From assembly GCA_905178155.1 (NCBI GenBank), contig CAJINV010000004.1, forward strand, positions 6,550,828-6,614,827: a stretch of 64,000 bases of DNA, in the 5' to 3' direction. This stretch comes from Amoebophrya sp. A120 (lineage: Eukaryota; Protista; Dinoflagellata). The notes beneath the pieces are model-generated. The model was not told the origin of the DNA, searched no databases, and was given only the letters and a program-made list of their open reading frames with translations. Position 1 is the first letter of the stretch; each line of letters begins with the position of its first letter. The translations under genes were made by a program, and so were the position numbers. Below are positions 1 through 41,119 of the stretch, one piece after another.

Positions 1-11
1 AAGAACCACGC

Positions 12-1061
12 TTGTACACGCAGGCGGAATACGCGCTGGATGCCCTTACCTCCTGCGAGGGTCACCTGGCAGTAGGAAAAGTCGAGGGATCACCCCTCAT
101 TGGCCTGCAATGGCCACTCCCGATCATCCGCACCTGGAACAGGAATTCCTGCCGCGAATTCGGCTGGGCTAAAGGAAAGAACATGGCGTATCATGCGACG
201 GCAGGTACCGACGGGGTGCCACTCGAGGCTCGCTTCCACAGCTCAACGGGGCGCCAGGCCACGGAGGGCTCGTCAAGGGACGTAGACCGCCTAGCCAGAT
301 TCGGGAACTTCTGCCCCTTGATCCTCCTCCCGAAAATCACGCCATCCCCCAGCCCACTGCTAGTCACTCTTCAAGACCAGATGATGGGTGATTCACACGG
401 AGCAGCGAGGATGGCACAGGCAGTTGCCACCCACCCGGCGCTTGGGCAGCCCGGATTAATCCAAGAACTGGTCCTGCAGCAACTACACATCCGAAACCCG
501 ACGTGCGACCACGACACGTTCAAAACAAAATTCGGCCTCTGTCGCCAGTGCCTGGAAGACGGGGCAAGAGCAGCAATGAGCATGCTCAGCGGCGAAAGCA
601 TGACAGCCGAAATCCTGTGCGAAGCGGTGGGAGATACGGTGGCTCCGGGAGTTCTGGCGCTGGCAAGATCAAACCGCAGGTCAACACGGCGTGCCCTCGT
701 GGACGCAACCAGGAGCGGGTCCCAGGAAGCCTACAACTACTTCTTCGAGGAGCAGGAAAAACTCCCGCAATACCCGCTACAACCGGGGATGGGAATCACC
801 CGCATGGGCCTAGGTTTAATCTGGGCGCACGGGCGCAGTGGCTACCCGATGGAGTGGCTCCTTGTAATGAACAAATGGCTCAGAGGAACAGAAGAAGACG
901 TCGCAGAATTTCTACGGCAACATGAGGAGCTCGACCTCCGATACTCGGGGATAGAGCATCAATACAGCAGGCTAGTTAACCTCCACAGAGGACGGATCCA
1001 TGCAAACAGTCAGATTCAAGAAGAAAAAGTGGATGAATTAAAACTAATTACATGCCAGTGA
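12..1061 (+). CDS. Hypothetical protein, frame open to the window edge; candidate ORF1/accessory ORF of the retrotransposon
   Basis: 349-aa intronless ORF with the same A-rich codon style as ORF2 and a Cys/His cluster CDHD...CRQC. No family recognised. Confidence 0.55.
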   Translation: MYTQAEYALDALTSCEGHLAVGKVEGSPLIGLQWPLPIIRTWNRNSCREFGWAKGKNMAYHATAGTDGVPLEARFHSSTGRQATEGSSRDVDRLARFGNFCPLILLPKITPSPSPLLVTLQDQMMGDSHGAARMAQAVATHPALGQPGLIQELVLQQLHIRNPTCDHDTFKTKFGLCRQCLEDGARAAMSMLSGESMTAEILCEAVGDTVAPGVLALARSNRRSTRRALVDATRSGSQEAYNYFFEEQEKLPQYPLQPGMGITRMGLGLIWAHGRSGYPMEWLLVMNKWLRGTEEDVAEFLRQHEELDLRYSGIEHQYSRLVNLHRGRIHANSQIQEEKVDELKLITCQ

Positions 1062-1942
1062 AAGTTACGGGAGCCCTGTAGATACACAGCAAAGGCTCAG
1101 CAAAAAAACAGGGATAAAAGATAAACAGAAAGTTAGTCACGTGTCGCGCTGATGAAAAAAAGGAAGACGCGCAGCACAACACAAAGGACGTTCGCTGCGC
1201 AGCAATCTGTTCCAAGAAGCACACCTACTGCCCGATTAATGCTATCCCCCATTCCGCGGCCTGGAGGGTTTTTTGCATGTCTTCGTCCTGGGGCCGCCTG
1301 CACTTCTGCTGTCGGGTGATATCAGTGCCTCTGCCCTGCTGTCGTTGCGGGCAGTCTCGGGCACCCACGACGGTGTCCGGTCCCGGGCCGGCCCCGTGGG
1401 TAATCTTGTATGTCTTTGTGCTTCTTGCAAGCACGTTCCAGCTCCTCCAGCTGGCACCAGCCCGCCAGGTCGTCTCGTCCGTGTTTGCAGCTCGAATGAG
1501 CTCGGCGCTAGTGCGCAAGGTTTTGTAAATCAGGAGTGGGGGAACTAGCGGGGTGATCAGAGCCCGGAGTGGCGGTGGATCTTGTAATGCGGGTCTGGCA
1601 AGAAGAGCATCAACCAAACAAAATGAAATATATGGTGTGTAATGCAGGCCGGACAGGAGATGCACAAGCTAAGAGAATCAGTAGTGCGTCAAGGCTAGGA
1701 AAGCCAGCCGACTAAAACTAACGTGAGCTACGATCGCAATAGTTAGAAAAAAAAAAAAGAAAAAAAGCTCCCTGAAAAAAAATATATATGCAACACACAA
1801 GTAGTCCACTTTTTCTGATATGAATCGCTGAACTCGGGGCAGAAGCAGCCTAGGAGAAAAGGCAGATCGGAGTGCGCCGCGTTTCGCTACGGGCAGTAAG
1901 AGTGGCAGTGATATCGAAAGCAGGATCCCGAACTTCAGCCAC

Positions 1943-4900
1943 ATGCTGAAAATCCGACACGGTAGGAACGCGAACCAAGTCAGCGACCGTGACATCACAT
2001 CAAAAAGGGGAGTCGAAACGGCTAACCTCCTCCACCGCAGGTACCCGCTGTATCACAATGCAGAGGAATTACCAGGGGGCAATGAAGCAGGGATCAACCA
2101 AGCCCCACAACCGCCTCAACACAAAGAGCTCCCGGAGGAGCTACTGGCGGCAGCCAGCCCGTACAAAATCACGTTGGAGCCAGCCCTTCTCCCAAGCGGC
2201 CACCGCCTATTCCCGGTGAGGGTATTTGAAAGACTACCGAAGAGATGGGCGAACTGGCTTGAAGCCGCGCACGGAGCCGGTCTTCTCGTGGAGATCGGAC
2301 TGCACTGCATGTCGGAGATGTCGCGCATCACTAATGCGGAGCTAACTGCGAACCGCACGGCAGGAAAGCCAAAGGTGGGATGCGCGCAGTGGGAAAACCA
2401 GCTTTCAACACTGATCAGGAACTACCTCCAGAAAACAGCAGGAAAGGGCTGGCCCACGAAGCAAGCGAAAAAAGAGGAAGTGGCTGCTGGGATCTGGATG
2501 ACCACCGGGAAAATATGGGATGATCAAGAGCGCCGATACCGCAACACGCAGATCAAGCCGAGCGATCTGACAATGCTGCGATGCTGTGCAGAAGGCATAG
2601 CAATTAGAATGACTACGAGATCGGCCCTGGCGCAACCCCTCCCCCCAGCAGACATCCAAGTCTTCTCGCAGTCCCAATCACAATCAGCAACGTCAAAACA
2701 ACTTCTCGGGATGAATGCGATAAAAAAGCGTGGGGGGCTGAAAATAGACGAAAAGCGACCGGCGGGACGGAACGTCAGATCGGACGGTGGCAGCACCGTC
2801 TCCGGACCTCCGCGGGAATGGAAGTCGCAATCAACAAGTACTCGCTGGAAAAAGGAGATGCAAAGCGAGGAAAATCGTCGGGCAGGTGAGTTTCTGTGCT
2901 GCGCCCCGCGTCGCACAATCGATGAAACTTTTGCCGATGAGACAATAAGCGAGCTAGTTTGCGAGCAATGCACAGCACGTGCAGAGGAATTACTAACCAG
3001 CATCCCCCACCGGGAACGTGTCGTCCACCCGCATGCCCTGGGCTTCCTCGCGATTGTCGAATATCCAAAGAAAGGAGTCGATCCAGCTCAAGGTCCCGCA
3101 CTCTATATCCGCATTCCAATACCTGACTCCGCGGCGCGTGACTACGTAAGTCAGGAATGGAGCTGCACAAGATGCCCATGGACGGGCAGCCTGGCTCAAT
3201 CCCTCCAGCACGTGTACCTCTGTGTGGCGGGCCGGGCGGCTCACGCGTCACAAATGCATATCCAGATAGCGGCGGATAACCTCAGGATAGGCGAAAAACG
3301 ACAGCACAGACAGGACCTAGCAAAAAGATCAGGCTACCTCCTCCCCACCACCAGCATCCGCTTAGAGCCGAAGTGGGCCCCCCCAGACCACAACTGGTCA
3401 AAGGGCAAGCCAATGATAGTCCATCTGGTGAACGCGGATGGCGCCCTAGTCAACAACCACATAGGTGTGGCGCTGGACTTGCTCCACAGCCAGGCGCTGA
3501 TAGCGGTGGTGAGCGAGGCATCGATGAAAAAAGAGGAAGCAACTAGCATCTTGAAAGTCATGGACGAGATCACGCAGGGCCGGTACGACTGGCACCGAGC
3601 AGACCGGTCGATCGCGGCAATAGCGCATGGTATCTCACCAAAAGCCAAAAAATGGACACCAGTACAGGGCGCTCCAAATATGCAGCTGGGATGCATCGAC
3701 ACGGAGGTCATGCGGGGAGAAGCGGTTGTGGGGTACGTGTCCCCGGCGTACGCCACCAGGAAGAACGAGCACGCAGTGCTGGCAGGACTAGTGTCCTCAC
3801 AGACGGTGCTGGTGGCGGGTGACCTCAACGTGACGGAAACTGCGTCCTCTCCAAGTAAATCGGCGGCTCACCTCAAGCAGAAACTACAGGCTGCCGGCAT
3901 GAAATCAGCGCTGGAGGAAGCAGCAATAACCTTCCCGAGGGAAGGAACACAGCCGGACTTGCTCTTCTTCCGCCTCACGTCGGAGTCCCCGACTTCCCAC
4001 CGCGTATATGTGGGGCCCAGCGCAAACAGGGAGCTATCAAACGCCTCCCATCATAACATCACGGCCATACTGGACCTCCCACCACCCCCGGAGGGCGAGG
4101 CAGATGAATCCCTCCCCGCGGAAGTGAACCCCGCGATCCAGGAAGCGAGATCGACGGCACACCGGGTGGTGAAGCTTACTGGTGCGAATCTCCGCCGGTC
4201 CTACGCATGGGAGAAAATCCCCCAAGTAAAACAAGCGGAGATCATAGAAGAAGTCTTGGGCGCAATCAAAGAAGGCTCCTTCACCTGGAAAACAGCATCA
4301 GAGGCGTGCCGAAAAAGGTGGAAAGCAAAAATTTCACCAGCTGCGTTCGAAGGATTCAAAACAGTCCTCCTAAAGAGCAATGGCCGTCTCTCCACTAGCA
4401 TCTCGGAAACAATGGAGTGCTTCCGCTCTCGCCTGCTGGACGGGAAGCCGGCAGGAGCAAAACGAACAAGGTGGGAAGCGGTGGCGGTCAACGAATGGAC
4501 AAAAGATCTAGCTGCGGCCTGCCCATCAAGGAAGTACCACATGAGCGAGGATCTGGTGATCCGGGTGCGAAAACGAATCAACAGTTCGTCTGCCCCGGGG
4601 ATAGACGGCATTCCCCCTGCCTTCTACCTGGAGAATGATGAGCTAACGTCGGCGCTGGTCCACATGGCGGTGAACAAAATCAACAGCGGGGACAAGCTTC
4701 CATGGTCCAGGAAATTCCTCATAAAATGGCTCTTCAAAGCCGGGAAAGAAGGCGCGGTAAGAATCACTAAGGAATTCTTTCGGCCCATCAGCCTGATCAC
4801 ATTAGGAGACAAAGTGCTGGAAGCGACGGTCCTGGAACTACTTCTGCCGGAGGTAGTCTGCTTCTCGGAAAACCTAGGATTCCAAAGAACCTGGTCCGCT

Positions 4901-7900
4901 CCCCTCGCCACGTACAGGGGCGTACACTTTTTAAAGGCGCAGAAAAAGGCGGGCCTCCCGTACGGTGCTGCACTAGTACGCGATGTAAAGGGCGGCTACG
5001 AGAACACCGACAAGAGCCGAGCGCTTTTAGCAATAGCCAGGAGGGGTGCGAGCAGCGAGCTGGTGCGCACAGTGGCAGACTGGTTCGAGGACAGGGCGAT
5101 AGTAATAATAACAGACGGACATCTCAGTGAAGAACACAAAGTAGCTGATGTTTTAGGCCAAGGCACACTCAAATCCCCCATCCTCTTCCGGATCGATTGC
5201 GAAATGGGCGCAGAAGACTGTGGACTAGTCAGCAAATCAAGTGTGTCACAAGACGAGGATGGCCTGGACGAATGGGCACGCCAGATGAACAACTTTGTTG
5301 ACGACGCGACAGCATATGTAGCAGCCCGAGACAAGGACAGCTTGAAGGCCGGCCTACTGGCAGCAAATAAGGACATGAACGCTTTCCCCTACCCGTTCAG
5401 CCCACCACGGCTGGCACTACTGTCTGGCCCACAAGACGAGGACATGACTGCATTGGCTCTTACCCTCAACCTCGAGCTTCCGGACGGCACAATTCTCCGC
5501 CCGACGGAGGCACAGGCAGTTCCGGACCCTCGGGAAGATCCAAAAACGGCCACCTTCTATCACGGCAAGCAAACCAGAGTGACAGGTGCCAGGCTCTACA
5601 AATTCGAAAAGATCCTAGGCATCCCGCACACCGCGCACCGAGACGGGTGGGCAGAACATCTTCGCATCTTGGAACAAACGGTGGAGAGCGATGTTACGGG
5701 ATTCACGGCGGACCCCCGCCACCAAGGCAGAAGCGTCCACGACTGCCTCAAATTCTATGCGGAGAGGGTGCTCAACGCCCTCACATACGGGGCCGGCGTG
5801 AAGTTCTTGCTCAACACGGAATTTCTAGCGGCGCTCGACAAACTGGCGGAGTCACAGCTGCAAAAACTTCTTCAGCAAAGCATTCCACCAGAAGGAGGCT
5901 TAGTTCTCGCTTCAGGAGCCACGCTCCCCAGCTCACTGGCAATAGCAGAGCATAGGATTCTGAACCTCCAGGCCATCTCCCTCAACACCGGGGGCGCGCC
6001 GATTCCAGCGGAGGCGGGTACTGCCGGCCAGGAGAAACGTTGGCGGTCGCTCAAGATCGACTTCAGCTACGAAAATGACCCTCCCCTCCCAGCGAATGTG
6101 AAAATCCTAACAGCAAAAGATGTCTACAACCGCTTTGGAGTTCACCACGCGTCGAAAAATGTCGGCTTCCTAGCGGCGAAGATCAAAAAATGGCTCTCAG
6201 CGTTAAAAGCGCAGTATGGGGCCGCCTTGCTAATCCTGGGTGCCGATGCCGGTGCGGGCTGTTCGGACGACAACAGCGACGAGGACAGGATCTCCGCGTT
6301 GGTCGGGCAGCTGGGGAACCAACCAGCAGGTGAATACCTGATTGGCATGCGCCTGTCCCACAGCCTCGACTCATTTCTTGGCGAAGTAGGGGGTCTCGGA
6401 TCTGCCGCAGCAGTAGTCGCGGCAAACGCTCCGGGAATGGCGCAGGCAGCCGCTGCAGGAAAAATTGTCCCGATCAAGCTGATCGTCGTTCTGGAGGACA
6501 ACGATGGGAGCATAGCAACTACACGCAACTCGTCAGGAGGCATCAACAGCTCTAGAACAAGAGCTATGCTGGCAGCGGCGGCGAGAGACCTTCCGGAAGC
6601 CACGCTTCTAGTACATTATGCACCGGGGCACAGCGGCATTCCATGCCAACAAGAGGCGGATCTGTTACAAAGCATGCCACACCAACCCTCCGCTCCGATG
6701 TCGGAAATATTTGAAGTACAGGTGATGCCTCGCCTGATCAAAAAGGTGATTAAGGCGGATGCGCGCTCGATTGCCCTTCGCCGCTTCGCGGGTCCCACGG
6801 CTCCGGGCTCGCAATCCTCGGACCGGTCAGAATCAATCAGGACTACGATTCTGTCACACATAGGGTACGCACCACAGTACTGGAAAAAGCTGCAGGGAAA
6901 AGCGCAGGCACTCATATTTTCAATCGTTTCGGCGGACGGCAACGTGGCTCTACAACAATCAGGAGCTTACCTCAAAGTGGCTCGCGCGAAAGATGCGGGG
7001 AGATCCCTCCATTGCGGGTGGTGCGGCAAGCAGCTTTTCTTCCACGGGAATACGACCAAGCAGTGCGACGACGACGTGCCGTCCTCTCAGGGGAGTGACG
7101 AATTGCAGGTGGACGAGCAGTCTGAGGAAATAACTGCTGTGCAGGACGAGCCCCTTGGCGGCACGGCGTCCCACGGCAACTCCTTTGCGGCTCACGTCTT
7201 GGGAGCGGAATGCCTCAAGGTGGTACAGTGCTGGCCAGCAGAAGATACCCCAGGTTCCCTAGAGAAGAACCTAAAAAACCTGCCGACCACACTTAGGGCT
7301 ATTCTGCGAGCAGCTGGGTTCCGAGATCCGGGGAAGGAGTGGCCGAAGCAGCAAAAGCCAGCGGCGTCGAGGGAAGAGGCCCCCCTTTCACAGGAGGCTA
7401 AACGAAATCTAGAGAAAACAACTCTACGGTGCATGGAACCACACGCAGACCAGGAAGAGGATCTACAAGACCATAATCAGGAAGAGGCCCCGTGGCTGAT
7501 AAAAGAGCTGCAAAAACTACAAGGAGCAGACCCAACCATCCCGGAAGCGGACGCGCGGGACTGGATTCTGCCCCGGGACAAAATCCTGGGGAGTGCACAT
7601 CCGTCACGGGTAGTGGGGAGACCGGCCACGAGGCAAATTGCAGTAACGATTGAATCCCCACGACAACCCAGGCAGCAAGGGGGCGTCAAAAGAAACTGCT
7701 CATCGGGCGGTGTTCACACGGGGATTCAAAGACGGTATGAAACTGTCCACCACGAGCCTGACGAGCAGGACATTGAATCAAACCAGCCCAAGCGTCGCAG
7801 GATTTCCAATGGTGCAGTAGGACAGGAAATGTATGATGCTGATGGGGATGCAATTATGCAAGACGTGGAGGACGAAAGTAGCGGCCCGGTGGAGGACGAA

Positions 7901-7927
7901 GAGGACGACTTGTTAGCGGACACCTGA
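1943..7927 (+). CDS. LINE ORF2-like polyprotein: Cys/His finger, APE-type endonuclease, reverse transcriptase, RNase H, C-terminal Cys motif
   Basis: EN motifs: VHLVNADG, VVSE, YVSP, VAGDLN, TFPREGTQPDLLF, ASHHN. RT motifs: APGIDGIP, FRPISLITLGDKVLE, LGQGTLKSPILF, NFVDD, KILG. RNase H motifs: GADAG, LGEVG, LEDNDG, HYAPGHSGIPCQQEAD. Cys motifs: CTRCPW..H..C and CGWCG. Confidence 0.93.
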   Translation: MLKIRHGRNANQVSDRDITSKRGVETANLLHRRYPLYHNAEELPGGNEAGINQAPQPPQHKELPEELLAAASPYKITLEPALLPSGHRLFPVRVFERLPKRWANWLEAAHGAGLLVEIGLHCMSEMSRITNAELTANRTAGKPKVGCAQWENQLSTLIRNYLQKTAGKGWPTKQAKKEEVAAGIWMTTGKIWDDQERRYRNTQIKPSDLTMLRCCAEGIAIRMTTRSALAQPLPPADIQVFSQSQSQSATSKQLLGMNAIKKRGGLKIDEKRPAGRNVRSDGGSTVSGPPREWKSQSTSTRWKKEMQSEENRRAGEFLCCAPRRTIDETFADETISELVCEQCTARAEELLTSIPHRERVVHPHALGFLAIVEYPKKGVDPAQGPALYIRIPIPDSAARDYVSQEWSCTRCPWTGSLAQSLQHVYLCVAGRAAHASQMHIQIAADNLRIGEKRQHRQDLAKRSGYLLPTTSIRLEPKWAPPDHNWSKGKPMIVHLVNADGALVNNHIGVALDLLHSQALIAVVSEASMKKEEATSILKVMDEITQGRYDWHRADRSIAAIAHGISPKAKKWTPVQGAPNMQLGCIDTEVMRGEAVVGYVSPAYATRKNEHAVLAGLVSSQTVLVAGDLNVTETASSPSKSAAHLKQKLQAAGMKSALEEAAITFPREGTQPDLLFFRLTSESPTSHRVYVGPSANRELSNASHHNITAILDLPPPPEGEADESLPAEVNPAIQEARSTAHRVVKLTGANLRRSYAWEKIPQVKQAEIIEEVLGAIKEGSFTWKTASEACRKRWKAKISPAAFEGFKTVLLKSNGRLSTSISETMECFRSRLLDGKPAGAKRTRWEAVAVNEWTKDLAAACPSRKYHMSEDLVIRVRKRINSSSAPGIDGIPPAFYLENDELTSALVHMAVNKINSGDKLPWSRKFLIKWLFKAGKEGAVRITKEFFRPISLITLGDKVLEATVLELLLPEVVCFSENLGFQRTWSAPLATYRGVHFLKAQKKAGLPYGAALVRDVKGGYENTDKSRALLAIARRGASSELVRTVADWFEDRAIVIITDGHLSEEHKVADVLGQGTLKSPILFRIDCEMGAEDCGLVSKSSVSQDEDGLDEWARQMNNFVDDATAYVAARDKDSLKAGLLAANKDMNAFPYPFSPPRLALLSGPQDEDMTALALTLNLELPDGTILRPTEAQAVPDPREDPKTATFYHGKQTRVTGARLYKFEKILGIPHTAHRDGWAEHLRILEQTVESDVTGFTADPRHQGRSVHDCLKFYAERVLNALTYGAGVKFLLNTEFLAALDKLAESQLQKLLQQSIPPEGGLVLASGATLPSSLAIAEHRILNLQAISLNTGGAPIPAEAGTAGQEKRWRSLKIDFSYENDPPLPANVKILTAKDVYNRFGVHHASKNVGFLAAKIKKWLSALKAQYGAALLILGADAGAGCSDDNSDEDRISALVGQLGNQPAGEYLIGMRLSHSLDSFLGEVGGLGSAAAVVAANAPGMAQAAAAGKIVPIKLIVVLEDNDGSIATTRNSSGGINSSRTRAMLAAAARDLPEATLLVHYAPGHSGIPCQQEADLLQSMPHQPSAPMSEIFEVQVMPRLIKKVIKADARSIALRRFAGPTAPGSQSSDRSESIRTTILSHIGYAPQYWKKLQGKAQALIFSIVSADGNVALQQSGAYLKVARAKDAGRSLHCGWCGKQLFFHGNTTKQCDDDVPSSQGSDELQVDEQSEEITAVQDEPLGGTASHGNSFAAHVLGAECLKVVQCWPAEDTPGSLEKNLKNLPTTLRAILRAAGFRDPGKEWPKQQKPAASREEAPLSQEAKRNLEKTTLRCMEPHADQEEDLQDHNQEEAPWLIKELQKLQGADPTIPEADARDWILPRDKILGSAHPSRVVGRPATRQIAVTIESPRQPRQQGGVKRNCSSGGVHTGIQRRYETVHHEPDEQDIESNQPKRRRISNGAVGQEMYDADGDAIMQDVEDESSGPVEDEEDDLLADT

Positions 7928-8742
7928 ATAATAATATTATGCTGTGTGTCTCTACATATTTGCCTCGAATAAAGAAAGACAAGTAGTGCAGAAGGAAAAA
8001 AAAGAATAGACAGTTACAAGACATGTGATTTTTAGAAACGGAGGAATGAGTAGTAAAAGGATATAAGCGGTCGAACAAAAAGCCTGTGTGCTTGTTTTCC
8101 TTGCTAAAGCAGTAATGATAGCAAAAAAAGAGCAAAACCAAATTACACATTAGGTGGCCGACGCGGGTGTATTGGAGTGATGGACGGTTTCAGGCGCTCT
8201 TTGGTCTGGTGTGTCGTAGTGTCGTGCGGGCGGGGATTTTATTCTGGTCGTGATCGCTGGTCTTCGTCCGGATCGTCCTCTCGGGCTTCGTCTCGGCTGG
8301 TGAGCGGTGAGTGTTGGTCGGAGAGGGTCCGGTGCTGGTGGCTTTGAGCGGAGCGAGGGTTCCTCGCTATCGTCGTCGCCCGGCTTTTGTCTTTAGTGTC
8401 TGTCCGTAGGTGGGGTCCCTATCCCGGCTTTGGCAATAGGGCTTCTAGGTGGACTGCTGGAGACCCCAGTCCTGTCGCTTCGCGATGTTTTACTCAAGCT
8501 GCCGGAGACCCCAGCTATCCTTCTGCTCTGCCCTTTTCAATCGTCGTTGTCTGTTCTCGTGTCTTGCCTGGTTTTCCGGTGGAATTTACCGTGCTCATGG
8601 AATTACCGATTCGACCAGGACATGCTGCCACTCTAACGGTTCCACTCGGGTCCGACCCCCGTTAGAGCTTGACCCTTTCTCCCCCGAGCTCCTACCTGAG
8701 GTAGTGGTCGTAAAGGGGATATAGTGGTTGAGGGGTAAATAG

Positions 8743-8827
8743 GCTCATGCAATACAGATTTTTCTGGAATGCAAATGCAGCATCACAAGTTGCATTCTTC
8801 CAGACCCAGACATTTTTGCATTTGATA
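8743..8827. mobile_element. Right part of a family-A introner interrupted by the LINE
   Basis: Ends with TIR ttccagacccagacatttttgcatttgata; colinear with the right part of 36204-36495 and 52757-53017. Confidence 0.88.
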
Positions 8828-11573
8828 CTGTCTCCAGACGCAGCCCTCCCTGATCGTCAGCCCCACCATGGGGTATTCCTTCAGCCAGAACCGGACCACG
8901 AACACCACCGTGAATGCGGGGATCGGTACGTCGGTGGGCTCCGTCACCGCGGACAGCAGGCTCTCGCTCGCCTCCGTCACCGACGCGATTTGCGATGTGA
9001 TCGAGCAACGGGCGGACCGGAATATGAACTACTATGCATTTTTGCAAATATGTCTGGGTCTGGGAACTTGTGATGCTAATCTGCGGATCACAGGCAACTA
9101 CCTCGAATACGGGGACACGCATGACAAATTTCTGAGCGACTAGGTCTTGCGTAAACTGCATGAGAAGCTGCGTAGTTTTTGCATTACAAAATAAAAGCCG
9201 CGCGGTCGCGTAACATGCATGGCAGATCTTTGTCTCCTGTCAGCAGAGCATTACAGATCTCGCAATCTACTTCCAGGCCCAGACATATCTGCACTCCATA
9301 ACTACGGTGTGGTTTTGATCCCGGACGGGCTTTTGGCTTTGATTCCGGAGATGCGGGAGCTAGTGGAGGAAGTATGAAAGTGCACAACTCGTCCCCCTCC
9401 CCCTCATTTGTATAGCATGAAGAGCAGTACAAACACGACCACAAATGGAGCCTATGCATGACAAGTTTGTGTGCCTAACCATAGTACTGTTTGGGCTTCC
9501 GGAATTTGTCATGCAAGCAGTGCCATAAGGATAAGGGAGCGACCACTGGATTTGGTATTTTGCATTACAAATGAGGGGGAGGGGGAGTTTTGTGCACTGT
9601 CATAGGAGGTGAACGCGATCCACAAGTCGAAACGGGTTTTTCCAAAGAAAGTTTCGGATTTAGTTGGGTTGTTGTCCCCCTTCTCGCACGGGGTCTTTTC
9701 CAACCTGCCCGATCAGATTCAGTATCCTATGTAAAAACGTCCCCACACCAAAGTCAAGATGGGAAGTCTGCAACACAAATCCCCAAGTTTTGGGGGTTTT
9801 GCATGACAAATTTCCATCTGCAGTGTAGTACTGGCTGGCAAGGAAACCCGCATGACAAAGCCATTTTCTCGTCCTGTTTACAGCATTACAAATTCCAAAA
9901 CACGACTGGAAATGCCTCTCATGGAAGTGCGCATTACAAATCTTCCAGTCATTGCGCATTTGCATGACAACTCTGGGGTGGGGACGTTTTTACACAGGAT
10001 ATTCAGTACCAGATTCTCACCTTCGCCAGCCCTTCGAACGACGAGTTTCATAGCCGGTACGTATCCTGTGCAAGAGTATCGTACTCGTACTAATTGCGTT
10101 TATGCATGACAAGTCTTGTCCTTAAGGTAAAACAGCATGACAAAATCCAGCTCTCCTGCTGAGGAAATTTGTAATGCATTTATACGACGAGTACGATGCT
10201 TTTGCAATGCATAGTATGTGGACGTCGCCAACATCGAGGCGGAACTGCTTTTGCGCGGGCTGGTCGAGTCGGAACTGTCGAGGAGAAAAGGGTTCGGGCA
10301 GTACCGGGGCGGCGGGTTCCTGTGTCACACGCACAGTCTGTCGCACCAGGCGAGATCCGCTCTGCCAACCAATCACGATTGCAATCTGGGGTACACGTTG
10401 GGGTACACAGCGGCGCTGTTTGCATTGGAAAGCAAAACGGGCCTGCTGGTCACGGTGGAGAACCAGGCAACGGACTCGGTATAATGGTTGCCCGGCAGCA
10501 GCTTGACAGACTGCTTTTTTTTTGTTATATTCCCAGAACTTCTTTCGTTCTACCCGGTCGTCCTTGCTGCAACATCTGCCATTCGTGCTGGGCCTGGGTC
10601 ATTGACATGATAGTAATCAAGCATAAGCATGCCATTATCAATCAGGTTGACAACTGGATCGTTGGCGGCGCCGTGCTCTCCCACCTCGTTTCCATCAAGG
10701 AGACTAACATCGGGATAAGACGCACCGACAAGGCCGCCCGCGCGTATTCCGTGCGGATGGAATCTGCCCACGGACCGGACGATTTGGTGTCGGAGGCACT
10801 GGCGAGCGGGCAGCTTCTCCCCCCGCCAGTCGACCGCGAGCCAGTGAACCCTATCAAATGCAAAAATGTCTGGGTCTGGAAGAATCCGAACTTGTGATGC
10901 TGGGTTTGGATTCCAAAAAAATCTGTATTGCATGACCAGCAAAGGGAATGCAATTTTGGCTACGCGGAGAGGGCATTTGTGATGCGGAATAGGCATCGCG
11001 AAGCCCTCGAAAAGTCTGTGATGCTACCGCATGCATTACAGACATCATGGCCCATGCTAAACGTGCATGACAAGTCTCAGAATCTTCCAGACCCAGGCAT
11101 TTTTGCATTTGAGAAACCCCGGGCCGGTGCAGTTTTCCGGGCCGCTAGCGGAGACGAAACTGATCACGCAGCGGTTGCTGGCGCCGAGCGGGAACGCGCT
11201 GCGGCAAGTGGAGAAATTGTGCAAGGAGATTAAACTACTCGCGTCCGCAAACTGCCGCAGCAAAGTGCTCGACGGGCTCTGTGCGTACATGAAATCGGGG
11301 TTGGACCTGGTGAATCTGTCTACCAGTTATGCAATACAAATTTCCCGCACATGTACAAAATACATCGCAAATTTCGCCAGTCTGGAGTGTAGGAACACTT
11401 GTCATGCTAAATTAGGATCGAAGGTAGGTTTACTCATGCAGACACCACATGTGTACGTGTAGGTCGTGTGCGGAAAATTTACTGTGGATACCAGTAGTGG
11501 CGCCAGTGCAACGAACCAACTGGCGGTCTCTGCCGTGCGACCGCGACCCAGTGTCAGAAGTAAGAGCAAATGA
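8828..11573 (+). CDS. PPi-dependent-family phosphofructokinase, C-terminal (alpha/regulatory-like) half; 3' exons only, multi-exon
   Basis: Joining exons across the introners gives NYGVVLIPDGLLALIPE, IEAELLLRGLVESELSRRK, HSLSHQARSALPTNHDCNLGYTLG, KTGLL, VDNWIVGG and NPGPVQF, typical of PFP-alpha/alveolate PFK C-halves. One GT-AG intron at 10479-10645; stop TGA at 11571-11573. Confidence 0.8.
9033..9300. mobile_element. TIR introner, family A
   Basis: TIR core tgtctgggtctgg / ccaggcccagaca; DR actac. Confidence 0.85.
9373..9604. mobile_element. TIR introner, family E-like (C/G-run TIR)
   Basis: tatgaaagtgcacaa..ccccctccccctcatttg / caaatgagggggaggggg..tgtgcactgtcata; DR ggaag/ggagg. Confidence 0.8.
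9723..10001. mobile_element. TIR introner, family C
   Basis: tatcctatgtaaaaacgtcccca / tggggacgtttttacacaggata; DR ttcag. Confidence 0.88.
10062..10213. mobile_element. TIR introner, family B
   Basis: tatcctgtgcaagagtatcgtactcgt / acgagtacgatgcttttgcaatgcata; DR gtacg/gtatg. Confidence 0.85.
10852..11114. mobile_element. TIR introner, family A (uninterrupted, opposite orientation to the LINE-hit copy)
   Basis: tatcaaatgcaaaaatgtctgggtctggaag TIR; DR aaccc; carries the empty target atctgtattgcatgaccagc. Confidence 0.88.
11328..11490. mobile_element. TIR introner, family G
   Basis: tatgcaatacaaatttcccgcaca / tgtgcggaaaatttactgtggata; DR ccagt. Confidence 0.8.
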
Positions 11574-12309: not shown

Positions 12310-15300
12310 ATGGTCGGCTCACCCAGGAGCCCTCTGGGCAGCCCCGGGCCGTCGGAGTTCGGCGCACGGTCGGAGCGGCCATCGCCCTCGGTTTACCGGT
12401 CCCCCACGGGACGAACGCCTGCTGGGAGTGCGGGAGGCAGCGGGAGACGAAAAAGGAATCGCCACTATCGTGCGGATATTGGTATGATCGGACAAGCGTT
12501 TATCTACTATAATGCATTTGACTTTTTGCAGAAAATTTCTTGTTTTGGTGCGCAAAATGAAGCCTGGGTGTTGCTACAGCGTCTTTATGGTGTTCGTCAC
12601 TACATCTATTTTTCACGCGCCTTTATTGGTGTTCTATTCTTTTTCTCAGGTACCTTGGTCGACAGCAATGCGATGGCGCGACCACGGAATCTGAACGCTG
12701 CCTTTGCGGGGGAGCAGGACACGCTTAACACGGATAACCCGAGCTACACAGGCCCGAACAAGATTAACCAGGACCATTTGCATGCCACCTTCACGAATTT
12801 CATCCGGAAGTACATTCCGGAGGGGGAGATGGCAAAGCAGGGGGACGAGGGGTACTACTTGACGCTGCTCCGGTATCCAGGAAGAAAAGTGTGCATTAGT
12901 GTAACTTTGTAGGATGAAGACTAGCATCACAAATTCGCTCTGCATTATTTGTAGAAAAAATCGCTGATGCGCAGATAGAGCGTGAAATAAACACGTATGG
13001 TGTCTGAGGCTACTAAAACGCACAACCAGCATGACAAGCGTGACTGTCTTGTATCATCTGCAACACAAACTTACACTCGCGCAGTTTTTTTCTTGCATAT
13101 CTGAAAGGAGTGGGAGGCGGTACCGTCGAACCAGCTGGACCAGCGGGTCGACTTTCCGATTGATTTATCGCACGAAAGGACTGTTTTACTGTAAGCTTGT
13201 GATGCATAGAATGGAACACAGAAGCATGTGTCATGGTAGTAGACATGCAAGGCAGTGCATTTTCGGGCGTGGAGTTGTGCCTTCGGAAGCACGCATGGTA
13301 AAAAAATCTTCCTTGTCATGTACAAGTGAAACAACTTCTTATGCAAAATTTGCAATAAAATGCTTTACAGTGAAACACTTTTTCTCACGATATCATTGCC
13401 ATCACTTGCACTTTTTTAACGCGGATCTGTACACGAATCTGGTCAACTTCCCCGCGGATATCATTGCGTTGATGGACCGGGTGCTGTGGGAATTTTCGAC
13501 GGGAATTTTGAAGGAGCTGAACCTTATCCTTACAGGAAAAGACAGGCGCGTCTTATTTGTAATGCAAAAATGGATACACATTCATATTGCTATTGCATGT
13601 CCTAAACAGCACGTTATGGGCTCGCCCATGACAGATCTTTCTGTGTATATATTTTTGCATTACAAATGTGGCCTGCCCCTGCCGGTCTTTTTGCGTGGGA
13701 TAAGCCTGGAAATCAACGAGGAGTCGGATGTGAACATCCGGGCAAAAACCTACAACCTCCTGGACCAGGATTTCCGGAAGATGCGAGATCTGGAACCCGC
13801 TGACATTGAAAAATTGGTGTCGACGCAAGGTATGACAGTGTGATAAGGGACTGCTGCTGTAGTGACAGGCTCTTCTTTTTCTCCATGTTCTTGGAAGGAC
13901 AATCTGGGTGCGATTTTATAAATTTTTTTTCCTTGCTCATGGATGCTGAACAAGATGTGCGAATCGGCATCTCCATTTTTGCAAGCAAACAGGTATCGTG
14001 ATCCGTTGCAGCGACTTGATTCCCGACATGAACCAGGCCGTGTTCGCCTGCACGACGCAGGGGTGCGACGAGCACGTCACCGTCGGCGTGAACAAATTCC
14101 GGGTGTTCGAGCCGCAGCGCTGCGACTCGTGTGGACAGTCGTCCAGCTACACGCTGAAGCACAACTTGTGCGAGTTATCCAAGAAAAAAAGTGTGTAAGT
14201 GTAACTTCCTAGCAAGAACAGCATCACAAATTCGTTTTCTTTGCATTACAGGGAAAACCTGTCATGCGCAGCTAGTACGTGGAAACACGCATGAAAGTTG
14301 CCTATGACGCACATCCGGCATGAAAAGCGTATTCAGTCTTGCATTTTCTGCACCACAGACTTACACTTACACAGTTTTTTTCTTGCATACGAGTTCGGCA
14401 ACAAGCAGTACGTGAAACTCCAGGAGACGCCGGAATCCATCCCGCCCGGTGAGTATCAATCGCTAATATGTCTGGGTCTGGAAAGTTGTGATGCTGGGCT
14501 GTACATGGGTGACACGCTTTCGCATGCAGCCAAGCGTGACAAGTTTCGAGAACTACCCCTTTTCATACCCAGTCCGCATGAGAAACTGCACTTTTGTTCC
14601 ATACCAAATGAGGCTGCGACTTTTGTCGGTGTTGCAATACAAACTTCGCAGCAATGTACGAGCAGCATCACAAGTTCCAACTTTCCAGATCCAGACATGT
14701 TTGCACTGGATAGTGAGACTCCGCAGACGATTCAACTGTACTGTTTCGACGAGCTGTATGACGTGATGAAGCCCGGTGACCGGGTGGAACTGACGGGTAT
14801 TCTCCGCGGGAGCAGCCAGCGGAGCAACTTCATGCAGCGGCGGCAGCGGGCGGTGTACCGCACCTTCATCGACGCGATCGCGGTCCGACGGGAAAACACG
14901 TCAGACAAGTCCACGATCGACCCGGACGCGACCTTTGTCCCGCTGTCCGACGAGTACGACACGAACCCGAGCAAGGTGGGCGAGCAACAGGCGATGCTAA
15001 ACCAGAAAATCCGCGCTTTGGCGAAGGAAACCGACGACCAGGGGCAGCTGACGATCCGGCAAAAGCTGATCGAGTCCATCGCGCCGTCCATTCACGAGCT
15101 GGAGCACGTGAAGCGGGGGCTGCTGTGCCAGCTGTTTGAGGGGACGACCAAAGTGACCGCGGACAAAGCGGCGCAGATGCGGGGGCGGTTTCGCGAGCAG
15201 ATCCACATTTTGCTCTGCGGGGACCCCAGTACCGCGAAGTCGCAGCTGATGACCGCGGTGAACAAGTTGGCGACGCGGGGGGTCATCACCAGCGGCAAGG

Positions 15301-17497
15301 GCTCCTCCGCCACCGGGTTGACAGCGTACATCACGAAAGACCCGGAGACGCGGGACATCATCCTCGAATCCGGAGCGTTGGTGTTGTCGGACAGGGGGGT
15401 CTGCGGTATCGACGAATTTGACAAAATGGACGATTCCACCCGCGCCGTGTTGAACGAAGCGATGGAGCAGCAAACCGTGTCCGTAGCGAAGGCCGGGATT
15501 GTGTGCAGTCTGAACGCCAAGGTGTCGATTCTAGCCACCGCGAACCCGATTAACTCGAGGTACTACAGATGTGAAGGAGACAGATATGTTTCACCTAAAG
15601 CAACAGAAAGACTTTGCAGGTTCTGATGTGCATCTTTTGTGAGTCTGTCGGTCTGCGCTTTCATCATGCGCTTAGAGATGTTGGCTTCGCATAAACGAAA
15701 ACACACATGCAAATATGAAAACCACCTCAGATACGACCCCAGCAAGACTATTATGGAGAACATCAACCTCCCCGCAACACTGACGTCTCGTTTTGACTTG
15801 GTGTACCTGATGCTGGACAAGCAGGACCCGGTGGCCGACCAGCTCCTCGCGCGGCACATCGTCGGGATGTTCTCCCAGCAGGGGCGCCAGGCGGAGCGGG
15901 AGCCCACCATCGATCGGTCCACGTTCCGCTCCTACATCGACTTCGCAAAGAAGCGCTGTCGTCCGCGGCTGATGGAGGACGCGAAGGTGGAACTAGCGGA
16001 AAGATATTTGAACCTCCGGACCGGCACCGCATCGGACGGGGCGGTGTGCGCGACACCCAGAATGCTGGAGTCCCTCATCCGCCTGGCGGAGGCCTTCGCG
16101 AAGATGGAGCTGCGGGAGCAGGTGACAAAACAGGACGTGAACGACGCGTACGAACTTTTGAACGAAGCTATCAAAAGGAAAAATCCCCCCTCCCCATACT
16201 CGAAAAGGAAATCTGTGATGCTGGATTTGCGTACACAAATCTGATTTGTCTTGCAGTAGGGGACTGCATTCCCATATCGTGCCGCAGTCCAGAGGTTTTG
16301 GCCTAGGCACTTAGCATGGGGACCGTCTATGCCGTAGGCCCAACAGCATTACAAACCGACTGAAAAATATGGCGGAGCCTGTGGCATTGCTTTCTTGCGT
16401 CACAGGTGCGATTTGTGGTCACAAATCAGCATGACTAATTTTTTGAGGCGTGCCCTTTCGATATGGGGAGGGGGGATTTTTCCTTGCAATAGAAGCAACG
16501 TTCAAATCCGCGGTGGATCCGGTCACGGGCAAGATCGACATGCAAGCGCTGATATCAAATGCAAAAATGTCTGGGTCTGGAAGAATACAAACTTGTGATG
16601 CGCATTTTGGAACACAGCAAAATCTCTCATGCATAGGCAGCACAAGTTGCCCACTTTCTGTCACCAAAGTCGGGGATTTGTCATGCGGATTCGGGATTGC
16701 GAAAGCTTCTCGAAACCTGTGATGCTGGAGCTTCCATGCCAGACCTTCTGTGTCATGCAAAAACAGCATGACCCTTCCAGACCCAGACATGTTTGCAATC
16801 CATACCTGCGGACCGGGGTCTCGGTGCGTGAAAGGCAGATCATGGAGCTGGGGGCCAAAGTGCTCGTGGAATTCGTATTGACCAATTTAAATTTTCTATT
16901 ATAAGTTTTTTGTTTTGGGATAAGCACGACATAGAAACTTCTGCTCTACTTCTTCAGGCTTGATTGTCATGGTGGCATTCAACGTAGCTGCTTTCGGCAA
17001 CAAGACGAGAACTGTAGTTTTGCCATTGGTCTTCACCTCCAGAGTTGCGTTCCCTTCTTCTCCCCCGCCCTTTCTGGGAATCACTACAAAAAAAATCAAA
17101 AACAGGTGAAAGAGGAGGCCATGAGCTTACGGGACGCGCTGTCCAAGGTGAACCAAGTGCTACAAGACAAGAAGATGAACACACTCCGGTTCAAGCACTT
17201 GTATCACCCGGATTGCATTTTTGAGTGGAGTGAAATTTGCCCCGCGCACCAGCTTCAAAAGTTTGCACACAGGCACAAGAGAAGACGAAAAATATTCTGA
17301 CGTCTCATTCATCCGCTTCTCTACAGTGCTAAGTACAAGACTACAGTTGGCATCTGCGTTCCTTCGTATAGATTTCGTTCGCGTGACAAATTTCACGTGT
17401 CTCAAAATTCCAACTGCATAGCACGCGGGAAGTCGTGGACGGGCTGAAGCGGGAGGGTTCGCTGATCCAACGGGGCGACATGCTTTCGGCGCCGTAA
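12310..17497 (+). CDS. MCM4: DNA replication licensing factor MCM4 (multi-exon)
   Basis: SP-rich N-terminus; IRCSDLIPDM; C4 zinc motif; KQYVKLQETPESIPPGETP; Walker A ILLCGDPSTAKSQL; Walker B IDEFDKM; EAMEQQTVSVAKAGIVCSLNA; SRFD arginine finger; ATPRMLESLIRLAEA; DPVTGKIDM. Confidence 0.93.
12874..13099. mobile_element. TIR introner, family D
   Basis: tatccaggaagaaaagtgtg / cgcagtttttttcttgcata; DR tccgg/tctga; similar to 14176-14389. Confidence 0.8.
13166..13392. mobile_element. TIR introner, family D-related
   Basis: tatcgcacgaaaggactgttttactgtaa / ttacagtgaaacactttttctcacgata; DR tgatt/tcatt. Confidence 0.78.
13525..13702. mobile_element. TIR introner, family F
   Basis: tatccttacaggaaaagacaggc / gccggtctttttgcgtgggata; DR aacct/agcct. 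Confidence 0.75.
14176..14389. mobile_element. TIR introner, family D
   Basis: tatccaagaaaaaaagtgtgtaagtgtaa / ttacacttacacagtttttttcttgcata; DR cgagt. Confidence 0.88.
14454..14712. mobile_element. TIR introner, family A (frame-preserving, hidden in the ORF track)
   Basis: Family-A TIRs; DR gtgag; removal joins ESIPPGE-TPQT of MCM4. Confidence 0.88.
16169..16491. mobile_element. TIR introner, family E
   Basis: tatcaaaaggaaaaatcccccctccccata / tatggggaggggggatttttccttgcaata; DR gaagc. Confidence 0.88.
16553..16804. mobile_element. TIR introner, family A
   Basis: Family-A TIRs; degenerate DR gctga/cctgc. Confidence 0.82.
17202..17420. mobile_element. Degenerate TIR introner
   Basis: tatc..ttgcatttttgag..gtgaaatttg / caaatttcac..ctcaaaattccaactgcata; removal with 5 bp restores RFKHL-REVVDGL. 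Confidence 0.6.
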
Positions 17498-18792: not shown

Positions 18793-21348
18793 ATGTCGAT
18801 GTCCGCTCGCACCTCAGAGGAGCAGCGGCGTTTGTTGAATGCCCAGGACAACGACAGGACCTCCTATGGAGCGGCAGAGGAGGGCGGTTCTAATATTCGC
18901 GGCAGCGCAGCGGAGGCCCATGGAGGAGGTGTTTATGCGTGAGAAAAGTTTTATTGTCATTGTCTTGCGTTTTTCGGCAGTCTAGGGTCAAATTCTGCTT
19001 TACGGATCTTTTTCTGATCTATAATGGAGAGACAAAATGTATAAATCCCGACGCAAGAAACTGTCCCCCGACGCTCGCGTGCTAAATGTATAAATCCACA
19101 GCATCAACATCTATGCGCCGTGAGAATATACAGCAATTGGGCCCGCCCTGTGGCTGTGCAACATGTTCCTTTTCTTGCGCATAGAGTCCCCCGCCATGGA
19201 CGCGGGTCTCCGAGAGTGGCCGGTGCCGGTGCAAGAAAAGGTGGCCCGGCACCAGTACAGCACGTCCACGGTAAAATGAACAGAGGCCCGCCACCCGCGG
19301 CGAACTACATGGGAGGTGGCCCGCCGCCGCCCAACTATAATATGGGAGGTGGCCCCCCACCGCCCAACTATAATATGGGAGGTGGCCCGCCGCCGCCCAA
19401 CTATGATATGGGAGGTGGCCCGCCCCTTGGTCCTCCTCTTCCGCCGAACTACTATGCCATTCCCGGCGCCGGACCACCGGCGCCTTCTAACTACTACGAC
19501 CCGAGTATGGAAGCGTCAGAATCGAAATCGTCAAAGTTGAAATAGTTTGTGATGCATAAAGTGATGCCAGTTGTCACTCAGTTTCTAAGTGGCGTATGAC
19601 AAATTTGGGTAGAACCGAAACCGAGTTTGTCATGCTGTTTAGGTAAAGAAGACGCCTTTTGTTATGCTACCTTGGCAGCTCAGTTTCTACCCCTCAACAG
19701 GCTTACAGTCTGCCTCACTTACCTACTCTGCAAGACAAGCACTGCGTGGGCTGCATTTTATGCATGACAAATCAATTCAGCTATGTCGATTTCGATGCTG
19801 ACACATCCATACCGAGACAGGCCGCGGCGCCGAGAAATTACGATGCCAACCGCGGCTTTGTCCCGCAACCGCAGCAGATGATGATGCAGAGGGCCCCCAC
19901 GGCGCCCTTCCCGAACGAGGTACCCGTAATTTTCCAGACGGGAATCAAGTACCAGTTTAACTACACCACGCTGGGCGCCTGTCCGATTTTTGTCAAGGGT
20001 TCGCACCAATGCGTGAGCATCATCCGGCACACGCTGGACCAAATGAAGGGCGTGCAAAAGCGCGCCGCGCGGCGGGACGGGAAAATGTTCGACTTTGCGC
20101 GGACGGAGTCCTTTATCTCACAGAATAAAGCAGGCAGAGGTCATGCTTGTAATGCAAAACTAAATAGACACAAAAAGAAACAAAAAGACCCGCATATCCG
20201 AAGTAACACACTATAAGCTCCTTCATGACAGATTTTTCTGCTATATGTTTTTTGCATTACAAATACGTCCTGCCTCCTTTTTTCTGCATGATATCCTTTC
20301 TGTTCGGCGTGTACCTGGTGGATCCGACTAACGGGCAGCTGCAGATGGCCGCGACGAAGCCCGAGTTCGACCGTAGTAACTGGGATTTCAAGACGTACGG
20401 CGACGACCACGAGTCCGAGCGGTTGCTAGGCAGTGCGAAAGTATCGCAATAGTACAAATCGCACGACAATAAATAATTTGTGAAGAAGAAAACTGATTCG
20501 AATTCCCCATGCAGAATGAGGCATGCGTGAGCATGACTGCGATTTTTAGAAGTACGAATGCGATGACTTTGCAGTGCATACTTGTACTTCGGAAACAGTT
20601 TGCAACGCCCCGTGGCGCTGCTCCACGCTGGGACGTTCGGGTGCTGCCCGGGCTGCGGGTGCGGGGAGCCGTACGTGGAGTTTGTGCGGAAGCTTGGGCG
20701 GCCGGTCAAAGATCCCCACCACATCATGGCCTCGAAGCGGTACGGGAGTAGATGTAGAGAAAAGTATTTCGTACAACAACCAAATCGACGCACACTGGTA
20801 CTAGAAAGAACAACTTTGTTCGAGGGCGTCGTGTGCACAGATGCAAGGCACACTCCTGTCATGATTTTCCCGCATCGCATAATTCTGTTTTGCAGAATGA
20901 CAAACATAGCAATCGCGTCTTCGCTCTGCATTTTTCCAACTTGTCGCGTACGAGCAGCAGGGAGATCTTGTTCTGTACCCATTCATTACTAAGCTGCGCA
21001 TAATGTAGTACAGTGCTGTCGGAGGTATACCTATACCCCTGGCGCCGACGAGTGTGTGAAGATCATGGCTAGTAGTAGTACAAGTACTTTTCACGACACT
21101 TGCATAAGCGTGAAATGGGGTGGAGCACGGGCCGGACGGAGTTTTATGTCGGGCCAAAAGGGGGGAACGGGCCAGCCTGTGTCCGGGTGGAGTACACAGA
21201 CAAGCACACGGATCCTGTAACCATCGAAATTCTGCAGGCGTGCACGGGCCGAGCGTCGGAGTTTGAGAAGCAGTTGGCCATGCTGTGCGGCGTTCGCTAC
21301 GCGTGCCGCATGCACCAGCAAAAAATCGATAATAGTGGATGTTGCTGA
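18793..21348 (+). CDS. Hypothetical protein with Pro/Gly-rich N-terminus and Cys-rich motif (possibly scramblase/tubby-like), multi-exon
   Basis: GC-rich exons join in frame across four introners. Contains NYNMGGGPPPP repeats, a GCCPGCGCG motif and a C-terminal GCC. Start exon and family assignment are weak. Confidence 0.55.
19309..19425 (+). repeat. 33-bp coding tandem repeat (~3.5 copies)
   Basis: atgggaggtggc recurs at 19309, 19342, 19375 and 19408, encoding MGGGPPPPNYN. Confidence 0.9.
19506..19811. mobile_element. TIR introner, family H
   Basis: tatggaagcgtcagaatcgaaatcg / cgatttcgatgctgacacatccata; DR ccgag. Confidence 0.85.
20114..20293. mobile_element. TIR introner, family F
   Basis: tatctcacagaataaagcaggcag / ctgcctccttttttctgcatgata; DR tcctt. 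Confidence 0.82.
20427..20580. mobile_element. TIR introner, family B (degenerate)
   Basis: taggcagtgcgaaagtatcgca / tgcgatgactttgcagtgcata; DR gttgc/cttgt. Confidence 0.7.
20741..21106. mobile_element. Degenerate TIR introner
   Basis: gaaaagtatttcgtacaacaac / gtagtagtacaagtacttttc..gcata; DR agcgg/agcgt. Confidence 0.65.
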
Positions 21349-40467: not shown

Positions 40468-41119
40468 CGCCTTTGTTTCGCCACCCACGACTACTTTGCT
40501 GGACTTTTCGAGCTGTATTTATTGATCCGGTACTTTCTCGATCAGCTCGTTACAAATGATACCCTTTTCGAGAGCTACGTGTGCACGTGCTTGCTTTACT
40601 TTCGAATACTGCTCCGATGGATCCGAGGCACGATCGGCCCCAACAGGACAGGAAAAATGTTAAATTCGTCACCAACGCAACGCAGGTGAATGTGATTAGG
40701 CCAGGAGAAGGGCCTTCATCAATCCGTTGAAAGATAACTTATTCCAGACACGTGAATCAAAATTCCGAATCCAGTTGGTGGATACTTACACGGGTCCAGT
40801 GAAATGAACCACGATGAAGATACGCAGAAGCAGAACTTCCTCCCTCTTCATTTTTGTTCGTTAGCTTTTTCGTGCGATCGATCCAGTGCCCTTCTAGCTC
40901 TAGTGATTTTTGATAATACGCGAGTGCGAATCTAAACCTGATTCGAAAGCTACGCTGCTGGTGTTTGAAAAACATCCAACTACGAACACTTTTTGTGAAT
41001 TTATGCAGCATTTTTACATTGTGCTCCAAGAAGGTGAAGGAGAAGAGTTGTTTCGTAATTTGTGGTAATAGATACTTCGTAACAGCAGGCTTTCGCTTTC
41101 CTGACGGTGACGACACAAA

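Follow-up and report, generated by a model that had tools for sequence, protein, structure and literature searches.

The question raised by the left end of a 64-kb stretch of Amoebophrya sp. A120 DNA (contig CAJINV010000004.1, positions 6,550,828 to 6,614,827; hereafter designated the window, at its full length) is whether a long interspersed element (LINE) lying there selects introners as its insertion site and is spliced out of the host mRNA together with them, as had been proposed in an earlier reading of the letters (hereafter the sequence-only reading). Introners of A120 are described as TAT-starting inverted-repeat elements with short direct repeats that are removed as non-canonical introns (PMC7789003, PMC12130899), and in the available text of PMC7789003 they are mobile and abundant, numbering 29,850. 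The question was addressed with the window itself, public sequencing runs, one metagenome record, and homolog searches, treating the organism as Amoebophrya-type, as its introners and the closest homologs of the LINE protein suggest. Site-specific insertion of the LINE into introners is now well supported, with three 3' junctions at base 178 of the introner and differing truncations and duplications; clean splicing of the full-length copy is likely, at slightly lower confidence, and these two together with endonuclease-directed targeting, taken jointly, are still probable.

LINE copies end at one base of the introner

The window contains 17 introners of about 260 bp with inverted repeats, a TAT start, an ATA end, and 5-bp direct repeats (32 arm matches forming 15 pairs, one more element, its left arm recognized by eye, and one half element at 8743–8827), which by these sequence features fit the introners described for A120 by Farhat et al. 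(PMC7789003). The 3' end of the LINE adjoins base 178 of a TAT...ATA introner of about 263 bp in the gene for pyrophosphate (PPi)-dependent phosphofructokinase (PFK); the right part of this family-A introner, beginning at base 178 (GCTCATGC...) and reaching the end of its terminal inverted repeat (TIR; ...TTTGATA), occupies 8743–8827 (+ strand, as are all features below unless stated). The introner alignment and a PFK exon match thereby confirmed the earlier placement of the LINE end at 8742, midway through a family-A introner of the PFK gene.

The 20-bp LINE terminus occurs exactly twice in the window, at 8722–8741 and 36389–36408, and chance occurrence at both sites was rejected, as 0 of 100 shuffles gave any match. 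The second occurrence lies in a family-A introner of the Dopey gene (36204–36495), which is 292 bp long versus 263 bp for an empty copy and holds a 23-bp, 5'-truncated LINE copy (36387–36409) consisting of TT, the 20-bp terminus, and A. This copy is flanked by a 6-bp target-site duplication at base 178, GGTCAT on the left (36381–36386) and on the right (36410–36415), and subtraction of the 23-bp insert and the 6-bp duplication from the Dopey introner leaves 263 bp. In both introners the terminus is followed by the homologous alignment column, as the sequence-only reading had claimed.

A third copy was found by an 18-mer scan of metagenome contigs, which gave 11 loci, only one of them (L011) with similarity to the LINE; the other ten (L001–L010), with unrelated flanks and nothing resembling the LINE, were set aside as chance matches. 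At L011, on a contig of this genome or that of a near relative, an introner holds 313 bp of the LINE 3' untranslated region (UTR), 87% identical to 8433–8742, at base 178, flanked by a perfect 18-bp duplication. The host gene is CDC48-like AAA, named from its translation by eye and with a Pfam AAA match. The L011 and Dopey hosts have the TAT-starting inverted repeats and 3–5-nt direct repeats of Amoebophrya introners (CCGAG on both sides at L011, ACGGG/ACGAG in Dopey), and by eye, the Dopey and CDC48-like reading frames are restored once each element and 5 bp are removed.

All three 3' junctions fall in one alignment column when compared with five empty copies. The uninterrupted site, CT|G[G/C]T[C/T]ATGCA, is present at 10852–11114 (− strand), 52757–53017 (CT|GCTCATGC), and 60933–61196 (− strand; CT|GGTCATGC), the three empty copies already recognized, and also in those at 32302 and 59661. 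By contrast with the fixed 3' end, the 5' truncation varies (23 bp, 313 bp, and >8.7 kb), as do the duplications (6, 18, and about 9 bp, the last from one 5' junction). Moreover, the right halves of the host introners are only 80–82% identical to one another (70–76% outside the TIR), whereas the LINE ends agree at 20/20 and 94/101 positions, and the PFK host is nearer to the empty copy at 10852, its nearest relative in the window (79/85), than to the Dopey host (69/85). The far greater divergence of the host halves than of the LINE ends indicates that the PFK, Dopey, and L011 copies are separate insertions. Since the Dopey and L011 copies were found by the LINE terminus alone, their flanks were not selected, and the rough odds of two more copies falling at one base and in one orientation of a 263-bp element are (1/526)^2 = 4e-6, a figure that holds even if insertions survive only inside introners. 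All three copies read in the same direction as their host gene, which at n = 3 is a lead only.

A wider sample of LINE ends and the length of the recognized site

LINE ends were further sampled in a DNA sequencing run (X1), in which 24 contigs cover 7300–8760; the statements below concern the 6 loose ends of 11 and the 8 aligned pieces of 29 that were listed. Introner-like sequence is joined to the LINE in three of the six loose ends, and none of the six shows a foreign 3' flank at 8741. Sequence from the left half of an introner, ending in GGTCATGCA, precedes a 5' junction at 8698; it differs from the homologous site in two empty copies by 1 and 2 mismatches. In a diverged copy, GTCATGCA stands about 22 nt before position 7822, a match of the motif only, its introner position being deduced from length. 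The loose ends at 8533 and 8589 resemble, by eye, the diverged UTR of L011, and that at 8407 lies inside a diverged copy. Four X1 contigs overrun the ends of the region, only record 1 of them at the left end, so that three pass 8760; two run beyond 8756 in introner-like sequence, a weak observation by itself, since the 14-mer was matched in 7 of 100 shuffles. In X6, a sequencing run from a different sample that was taken as RNA by guess, another LINE copy (record 10, 8 differences) also crosses the junction, to 8756. The X1 depth reaches about 1,220 at 8623–8671 and 640 at 8721–8760, versus 43 for one copy.

Among the explanations that would dispense with introner targeting, the one that survives best, although we give it a rather low probability, is that the short motif CT|KSTVATGC is recognized instead of the introner and that copies outside introners were purged for breaking genes. 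The genome is gene-dense, GTCATGCA occurs 27 times in the window, and an unrelated insert uses the same core elsewhere in an introner (62041/62567), all of which speak for this explanation. Yet a GTCATGC-type heptamer occurs 1–4 times per introner in the target orientation, and all three 3' junctions as well as the 5' junction at 8698 fall at the base-178 copy; survival cannot select one base. The use of this one heptamer points to a longer recognition site.

The insert just mentioned lies in a related introner at 62008–62786, near its left arm, at CT|TGTAATGC. It is 510 bp long (62057–62566), T/G-rich, and without similarity to the LINE; the copies of its 16-bp duplication, at 62041 and 62567, begin with TGTAATGC. 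The insert is likely the 3' UTR of another retroelement with the same core motif. Its position at the same core suggests that the motif may serve several families.

A few other introner-like sequences were noted. The introner at 53613–53859 has an internal deletion of about 33 bp and, at the LINE target-site column, carries a few additional bases; an insertion or a repair event could have left it in this state. An 83-bp repeat pair (13595–13677 and 20192–20274) resembles part of another introner family.

The LINE-encoded protein

The LINE carries an intact open reading frame (ORF) of 1,994 amino acids without stops (1943–7927), comprising an N-terminal Cys/His extension, an endonuclease (EN), a reverse transcriptase (RT), an RNase H-like region, a C-terminal CxxC, and an acidic tail. 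Its best homologs are the Amoebophrya AT5.2 proteins P0001–P0003 (E = 1e-78 to 1e-60, about 31% identity), a partial A120 protein ranking lower. Scores above 60 bits were obtained only with Amoebophrya proteins, and outside matches, mostly unnamed, reached at most 57 bits. A word-seeded homolog search with residues 480–1300 and a single-sequence PDB search found none, an Atlas search with residues 1–480 gave no usable match, and a protein-pattern scan of metagenomes confirmed 0 of 400 candidate stretches. P0002, P0003, and P0005 were used in residue comparisons.

Preceding the endonuclease, a cluster of Cys and His residues (2960–3223; C340, C343, H362, C408, C411, H423, and C427) is invariant in all four aligned proteins (blastp, E = 4e-8 to 2e-4) and, by its residue pattern, likely binds zinc. 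The endonuclease (3380–4120) gave only a Pfam Exo_endo_phos_2 match at E = 0.096, but the structure model of residues 480–726 (pLDDT, the predicted local distance difference test score, 65) folds as an EEP/APE nuclease. In Foldseek it gave 269 matches at E ≤ 0.001, with TDP2 first and TRAS1 EN (1wdu, E = 3.7e-7), APE1, and ExoIII also among them. Residues N497, E525, Y598, D627/N629, D672, and H703 stand at the usual N, E, Y, GDxN, D, and H positions.

The non-LTR reverse transcriptase (4520–5640, with FVDD at residues 1118–1121) was matched weakly by Pfam RVT_1 (E = 0.0016), and a four-sequence profile had LINE-1 ORF2p as its top match (E = 3e-8). The RT model (pLDDT 69) gave L1 or R2 in all of the top 13 Foldseek rows, LINE-1 ORF2p being first at E = 9e-16, and was superimposed on R2Tg (VIA Z 18.3, root-mean-square deviation (rmsd) 4.3, 445 aligned) and on L1 (Z 16.2, rmsd 4.2, 441 aligned). 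Because a Pfam scan of the ORF for an RNase H domain gave no match, the RNase H-like domain (6200–6700) is assigned at the motif level only, by D1435, E1481, D1519, H1563, and D1573, a D/E/D/H/D set invariant in all three aligned proteins (the window LINE, P0003, and P0005). RNase H-bearing LINE clades are I, Ingi, R1, and Tad1. Of the EN-RT-RNase H ORF seen by the sequence-only reading, the frame and, by fold and profile, the EN and RT stand as described, with RNase H by motifs only.

These features, an APE/EEP endonuclease, a non-LTR RT, and 3'-anchored, 5'-truncated copies with variable target-site duplications, identify the element as an APE-type non-LTR retrotransposon of the Amoebophrya lineage.

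Ends of the LINE and its upstream part

The 3' UTR (7928–8742), the last 130 bp or so of which are conserved and multi-copy, ends in TAAATA plus one purine. All three LINE ends have this form and are followed directly by the target, with no poly(A) or simple-repeat tail, which is usual but not universal in LINEs. Folding of the 3' end was no better than that of shuffled sequences (z, −1.16).

Upstream, one X1 contig of 12,310 bp matches 1–8640 without a difference at depth 43 and reaches 3,670 bp further upstream. This uniform single-contig depth shows the long LINE copy to be single-copy, and the extension places its 5' end outside the window. A search of 1–1942 found no left introner half, no 5' duplication, and no spliced-leader-like core. 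A 5'-open ORF of at least 352 amino acids (3–1061) lies on the same single-copy contig and may be ORF1, cargo, or part of a second nested element; homolog searches, word-seeded ones included, found none, and an Atlas match (score 0.85) with the winged-helix domains found in NACHT/TANC-type proteins is a weak lead only. The spacer that follows (1062–1942) is A-rich and then A-poor, like the LINE 3' UTR, and has two TGTAATGC motifs at 1583 and 1638, at which the A-rich/A-poor stretch ends; at 3–1942 the intron that holds the LINE may harbour a second nested element or a retrocopy.

Probable splicing of the enlarged intron of the PFK gene

The right 5-bp direct repeat of the PFK introner, CTGTC (8828–8832), opens the downstream exons of the gene (8828–11320), which are split by further introners and a GT-AG intron. 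The exon at 10215–10478 matches PPi-PFK (1kzh, E = 1e-7), and the exon at 8829–9035 alone gave no match in the PDB. One X6 contig (record 11; 2,579 nt) equals 8828–9026, 10218–10477, and 10645–10784 with zero differences, keeping the first base of the CTGTC repeat, and its positions 840–2579 (1,740 nt) lie upstream of 8828, off the window; these are probably the upstream PFK exons. As the contig lacks the GT-AG intron near 10478–10645, it behaves as mRNA. X6 also carries 8471–8671 of the LINE UTR with 0 differences, an exact match showing that its sample carries this LINE copy; X6 cover over the ORF2 of the LINE is almost nil and was counted neither way.

Since the spliced contig resumes exactly at 8828 and extends upstream, the enlarged intron is probably removed. 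Thus, removal from mRNA, the remaining feature of an introner, is documented by one contig and for PFK, whereas raw RNA reads (X8) match introner arms only, mostly below 90% identity, and are uninformative; a further run (X7) added little. The proposed splicing is accordingly supported for PFK, provided that the join of the LINE to PFK is right. The size of the giant intron that had been proposed, >9 kb, has to be raised, with the contig extension, to at least 8,827 + 3,670, or about 12.5 kb, if the assembly is right.

Several points weigh against site-specific insertion followed by splicing. Of the full-length copy, neither the 5' junction nor the left half of the introner was seen, nor were the PFK exons that should precede it, and no listed contig bridges 8641–8802. 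X6 and X1 are different samples, and the RNA status of X6 is a guess, for which the removal of the GT-AG intron argues. The sample of LINE ends is not a full genome census, and foreign flanks may occur among the remaining 5 of 11 loose ends of X1 or its remaining aligned pieces. The letters of X1 differ from the window at 8677 and 8719, where bubble removal in a repeat or a polishing error is possible and a mis-join conceivable. Finally, the EN has Ser instead of the usual Asp before the catalytic H703, as has its homolog P0002, and its structure model is of middling quality.

At 8677 and 8719, all X1 contigs present carry a letter other than that of the window, possibly through a polishing error or through alleles lost in contig building.

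On these grounds it could be held that the targeting is real but that PFK has no such giant intron, the assembly having been mis-joined through the repeated 3' end, or that the sampled RNA derives from cells whose PFK introner is empty. The unbridged interval, the two differing letters, and the separate samples leave room for this explanation, which we nevertheless regard as improbable, because the depth is uniform over the LINE and the PFK contigs (43 versus 44–50) and X6 carries the exact UTR of this copy. Slightly less probable still is a single ancestral insertion that spread by composite-introner transposition or was copied through gene conversion or abortive gap repair, deletions later shortening the copies: mobile, abundant introners and the shared junction position would agree with such common descent, but it was rejected on the divergence of the host halves relative to the LINE ends, and the unequal duplications (6 versus 18 bp), the retention of the 3' end with loss of the 5' side in every short copy, and the nearness of the PFK host to an empty copy speak against it as well.

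Proposed mechanism and its meaning

In target-primed reverse transcription by APE-type LINEs, the first nick is specific and the second is loose, which gives fixed 3' ends, variable 5' ends, and varied duplications. The fixed 3' ends, variable 5' ends, and 6–18-bp duplications found here are as expected of this process. The LINE's own endonuclease would probably nick the bottom strand at CT|G[G/C]TCATGC, the base-178 site, one base before the GTCATGC-type heptamer, and prime reverse transcription there, with a second nick 6–18 bp downstream; the Cys/His domain preceding the endonuclease may add target specificity. An insert at base 178 would leave intact the splicing signals, which presumably lie at the introner ends, and the host gene would still work. 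The absence of a poly(A) tail together with the sense orientation suggests that the template may be an intron RNA with downstream target sequence attached.

We also entertain, only tentatively, a LINE lineage living entirely off introners, which would read their internal repeats by the zinc-binding domain and the APE endonuclease and use host pre-mRNA or the excised intron as its transcript. Equally tentative are the corollaries that insertion is in the sense orientation (3/3 here), with the co-transcribed downstream target replacing the poly(A) tail and fixing the 3' junction, and that several unrelated retroelement families share the heptamer at different positions, as hyperparasites kept harmless by non-canonical splicing of introns of >12 kb.

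Site-specific insertion into spliced introners would provide a new kind of safe harbour for retrotransposons, namely thousands of coding-gene sites made neutral by splicing and not by redundancy, and would let a LINE live inside genes without breaking them. It also bears on how the non-canonical introns of Amoebophrya are cut: an introner still removed to the base after growth from 263 bp to >12 kb would, if true, have its signals at the ends, independent of short length. Moreover, the endonuclease with its defined target offers a direct in vitro system in which to study how specificity arises in APE-type LINEs.

Neighbouring genes

An MCM helicase subunit gene (14295–16800) and the Dopey-family gene (25344–37700) are both split by family-A introners, and an uninterrupted 1,363-residue ORF at 41111–45202 has no introner. 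Two paralogous Cys/His-rich ORFs (39394–40467 and 46240–47145), TRAF-zinc-finger-like by eye, are similar at 39592–39734 and 46468–46610, the second ending in tandem repeats.

Comparison with known systems

Some A120 introner families have been attributed to non-LTR elements in the available text of Gozashti et al.; these may in part be nested LINE copies. In the available part of supplement file 8 of PMC12130899 (22 of the 118 Amoebophrya rows), several short TIR introner families of A120 have coordinate values of 4–14 kb, and one A120 family is classed as non-LTR at 18.8 kb, the meaning of the column being our reading of it; the large values may reflect nested insertions like the LINE in the introner. 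A search for the introner TIR string in 12 of that paper's 14 supplement files (all but files 13 and 14) gave no match. As far as their available text goes, the Amoebophrya introner papers (PMC7789003, PMC12130899) deal with introners but describe no LINE directed to a fixed position within them. Safe-haven targeting in general has been described (PMC6719617, PMC8869645), and a published LINE aimed at a spliced introner was not found in the available literature, although supplement rows, bioRxiv supplements, subscription journals, or Repbase could hold one.

Site-specific LINEs include R1Bm and TRAS1 (PMC1950540). Like R1, TRAS/SART, and R2, the Amoebophrya LINE combines a fixed 3' junction and variable 5' truncation with a multicopy target. 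Those elements are aimed at ribosomal DNA (rDNA) or telomeres, and an rDNA insertion inactivates the unit; unlike in R1 and R2, splicing in the Amoebophrya case would keep the gene working.

The idea of a parasite of a parasite, put forward by the sequence-only reading, has precedents. SINEU-3 of crocodilians, inserted repeatedly in Mariner-N4_AMi (PMC4494074), is likewise a retroposon, lodged in a non-autonomous TIR element of high copy number and perhaps transcribed from the flanks, but, in the text available, it is a non-autonomous short interspersed element whose target is not an intron. Closer is Tx1L of Xenopus laevis, which inserts into Tx1D, a non-autonomous piggyBac DNA transposon (PMC4494074, PMC1950540): both are APE-endonuclease LINEs at one site inside a non-autonomous DNA transposon, with little harm to the host as far as described, and the Amoebophrya LINE shares the Tx1-type trait of sequence-specific insertion in a multicopy target, a likeness in the mode of insertion. 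Unlike Tx1L, it has an N-terminal Cys/His extension of about 480 residues, RNase H-like motifs, and a strongly diverged protein, and its target, by what the available accounts of Tx1L describe, differs in being also a spliced intron inside coding sequence. Collectively, the targeting of non-autonomous TIR elements by retroelements is already known, and the spliced-intron target is the new part.

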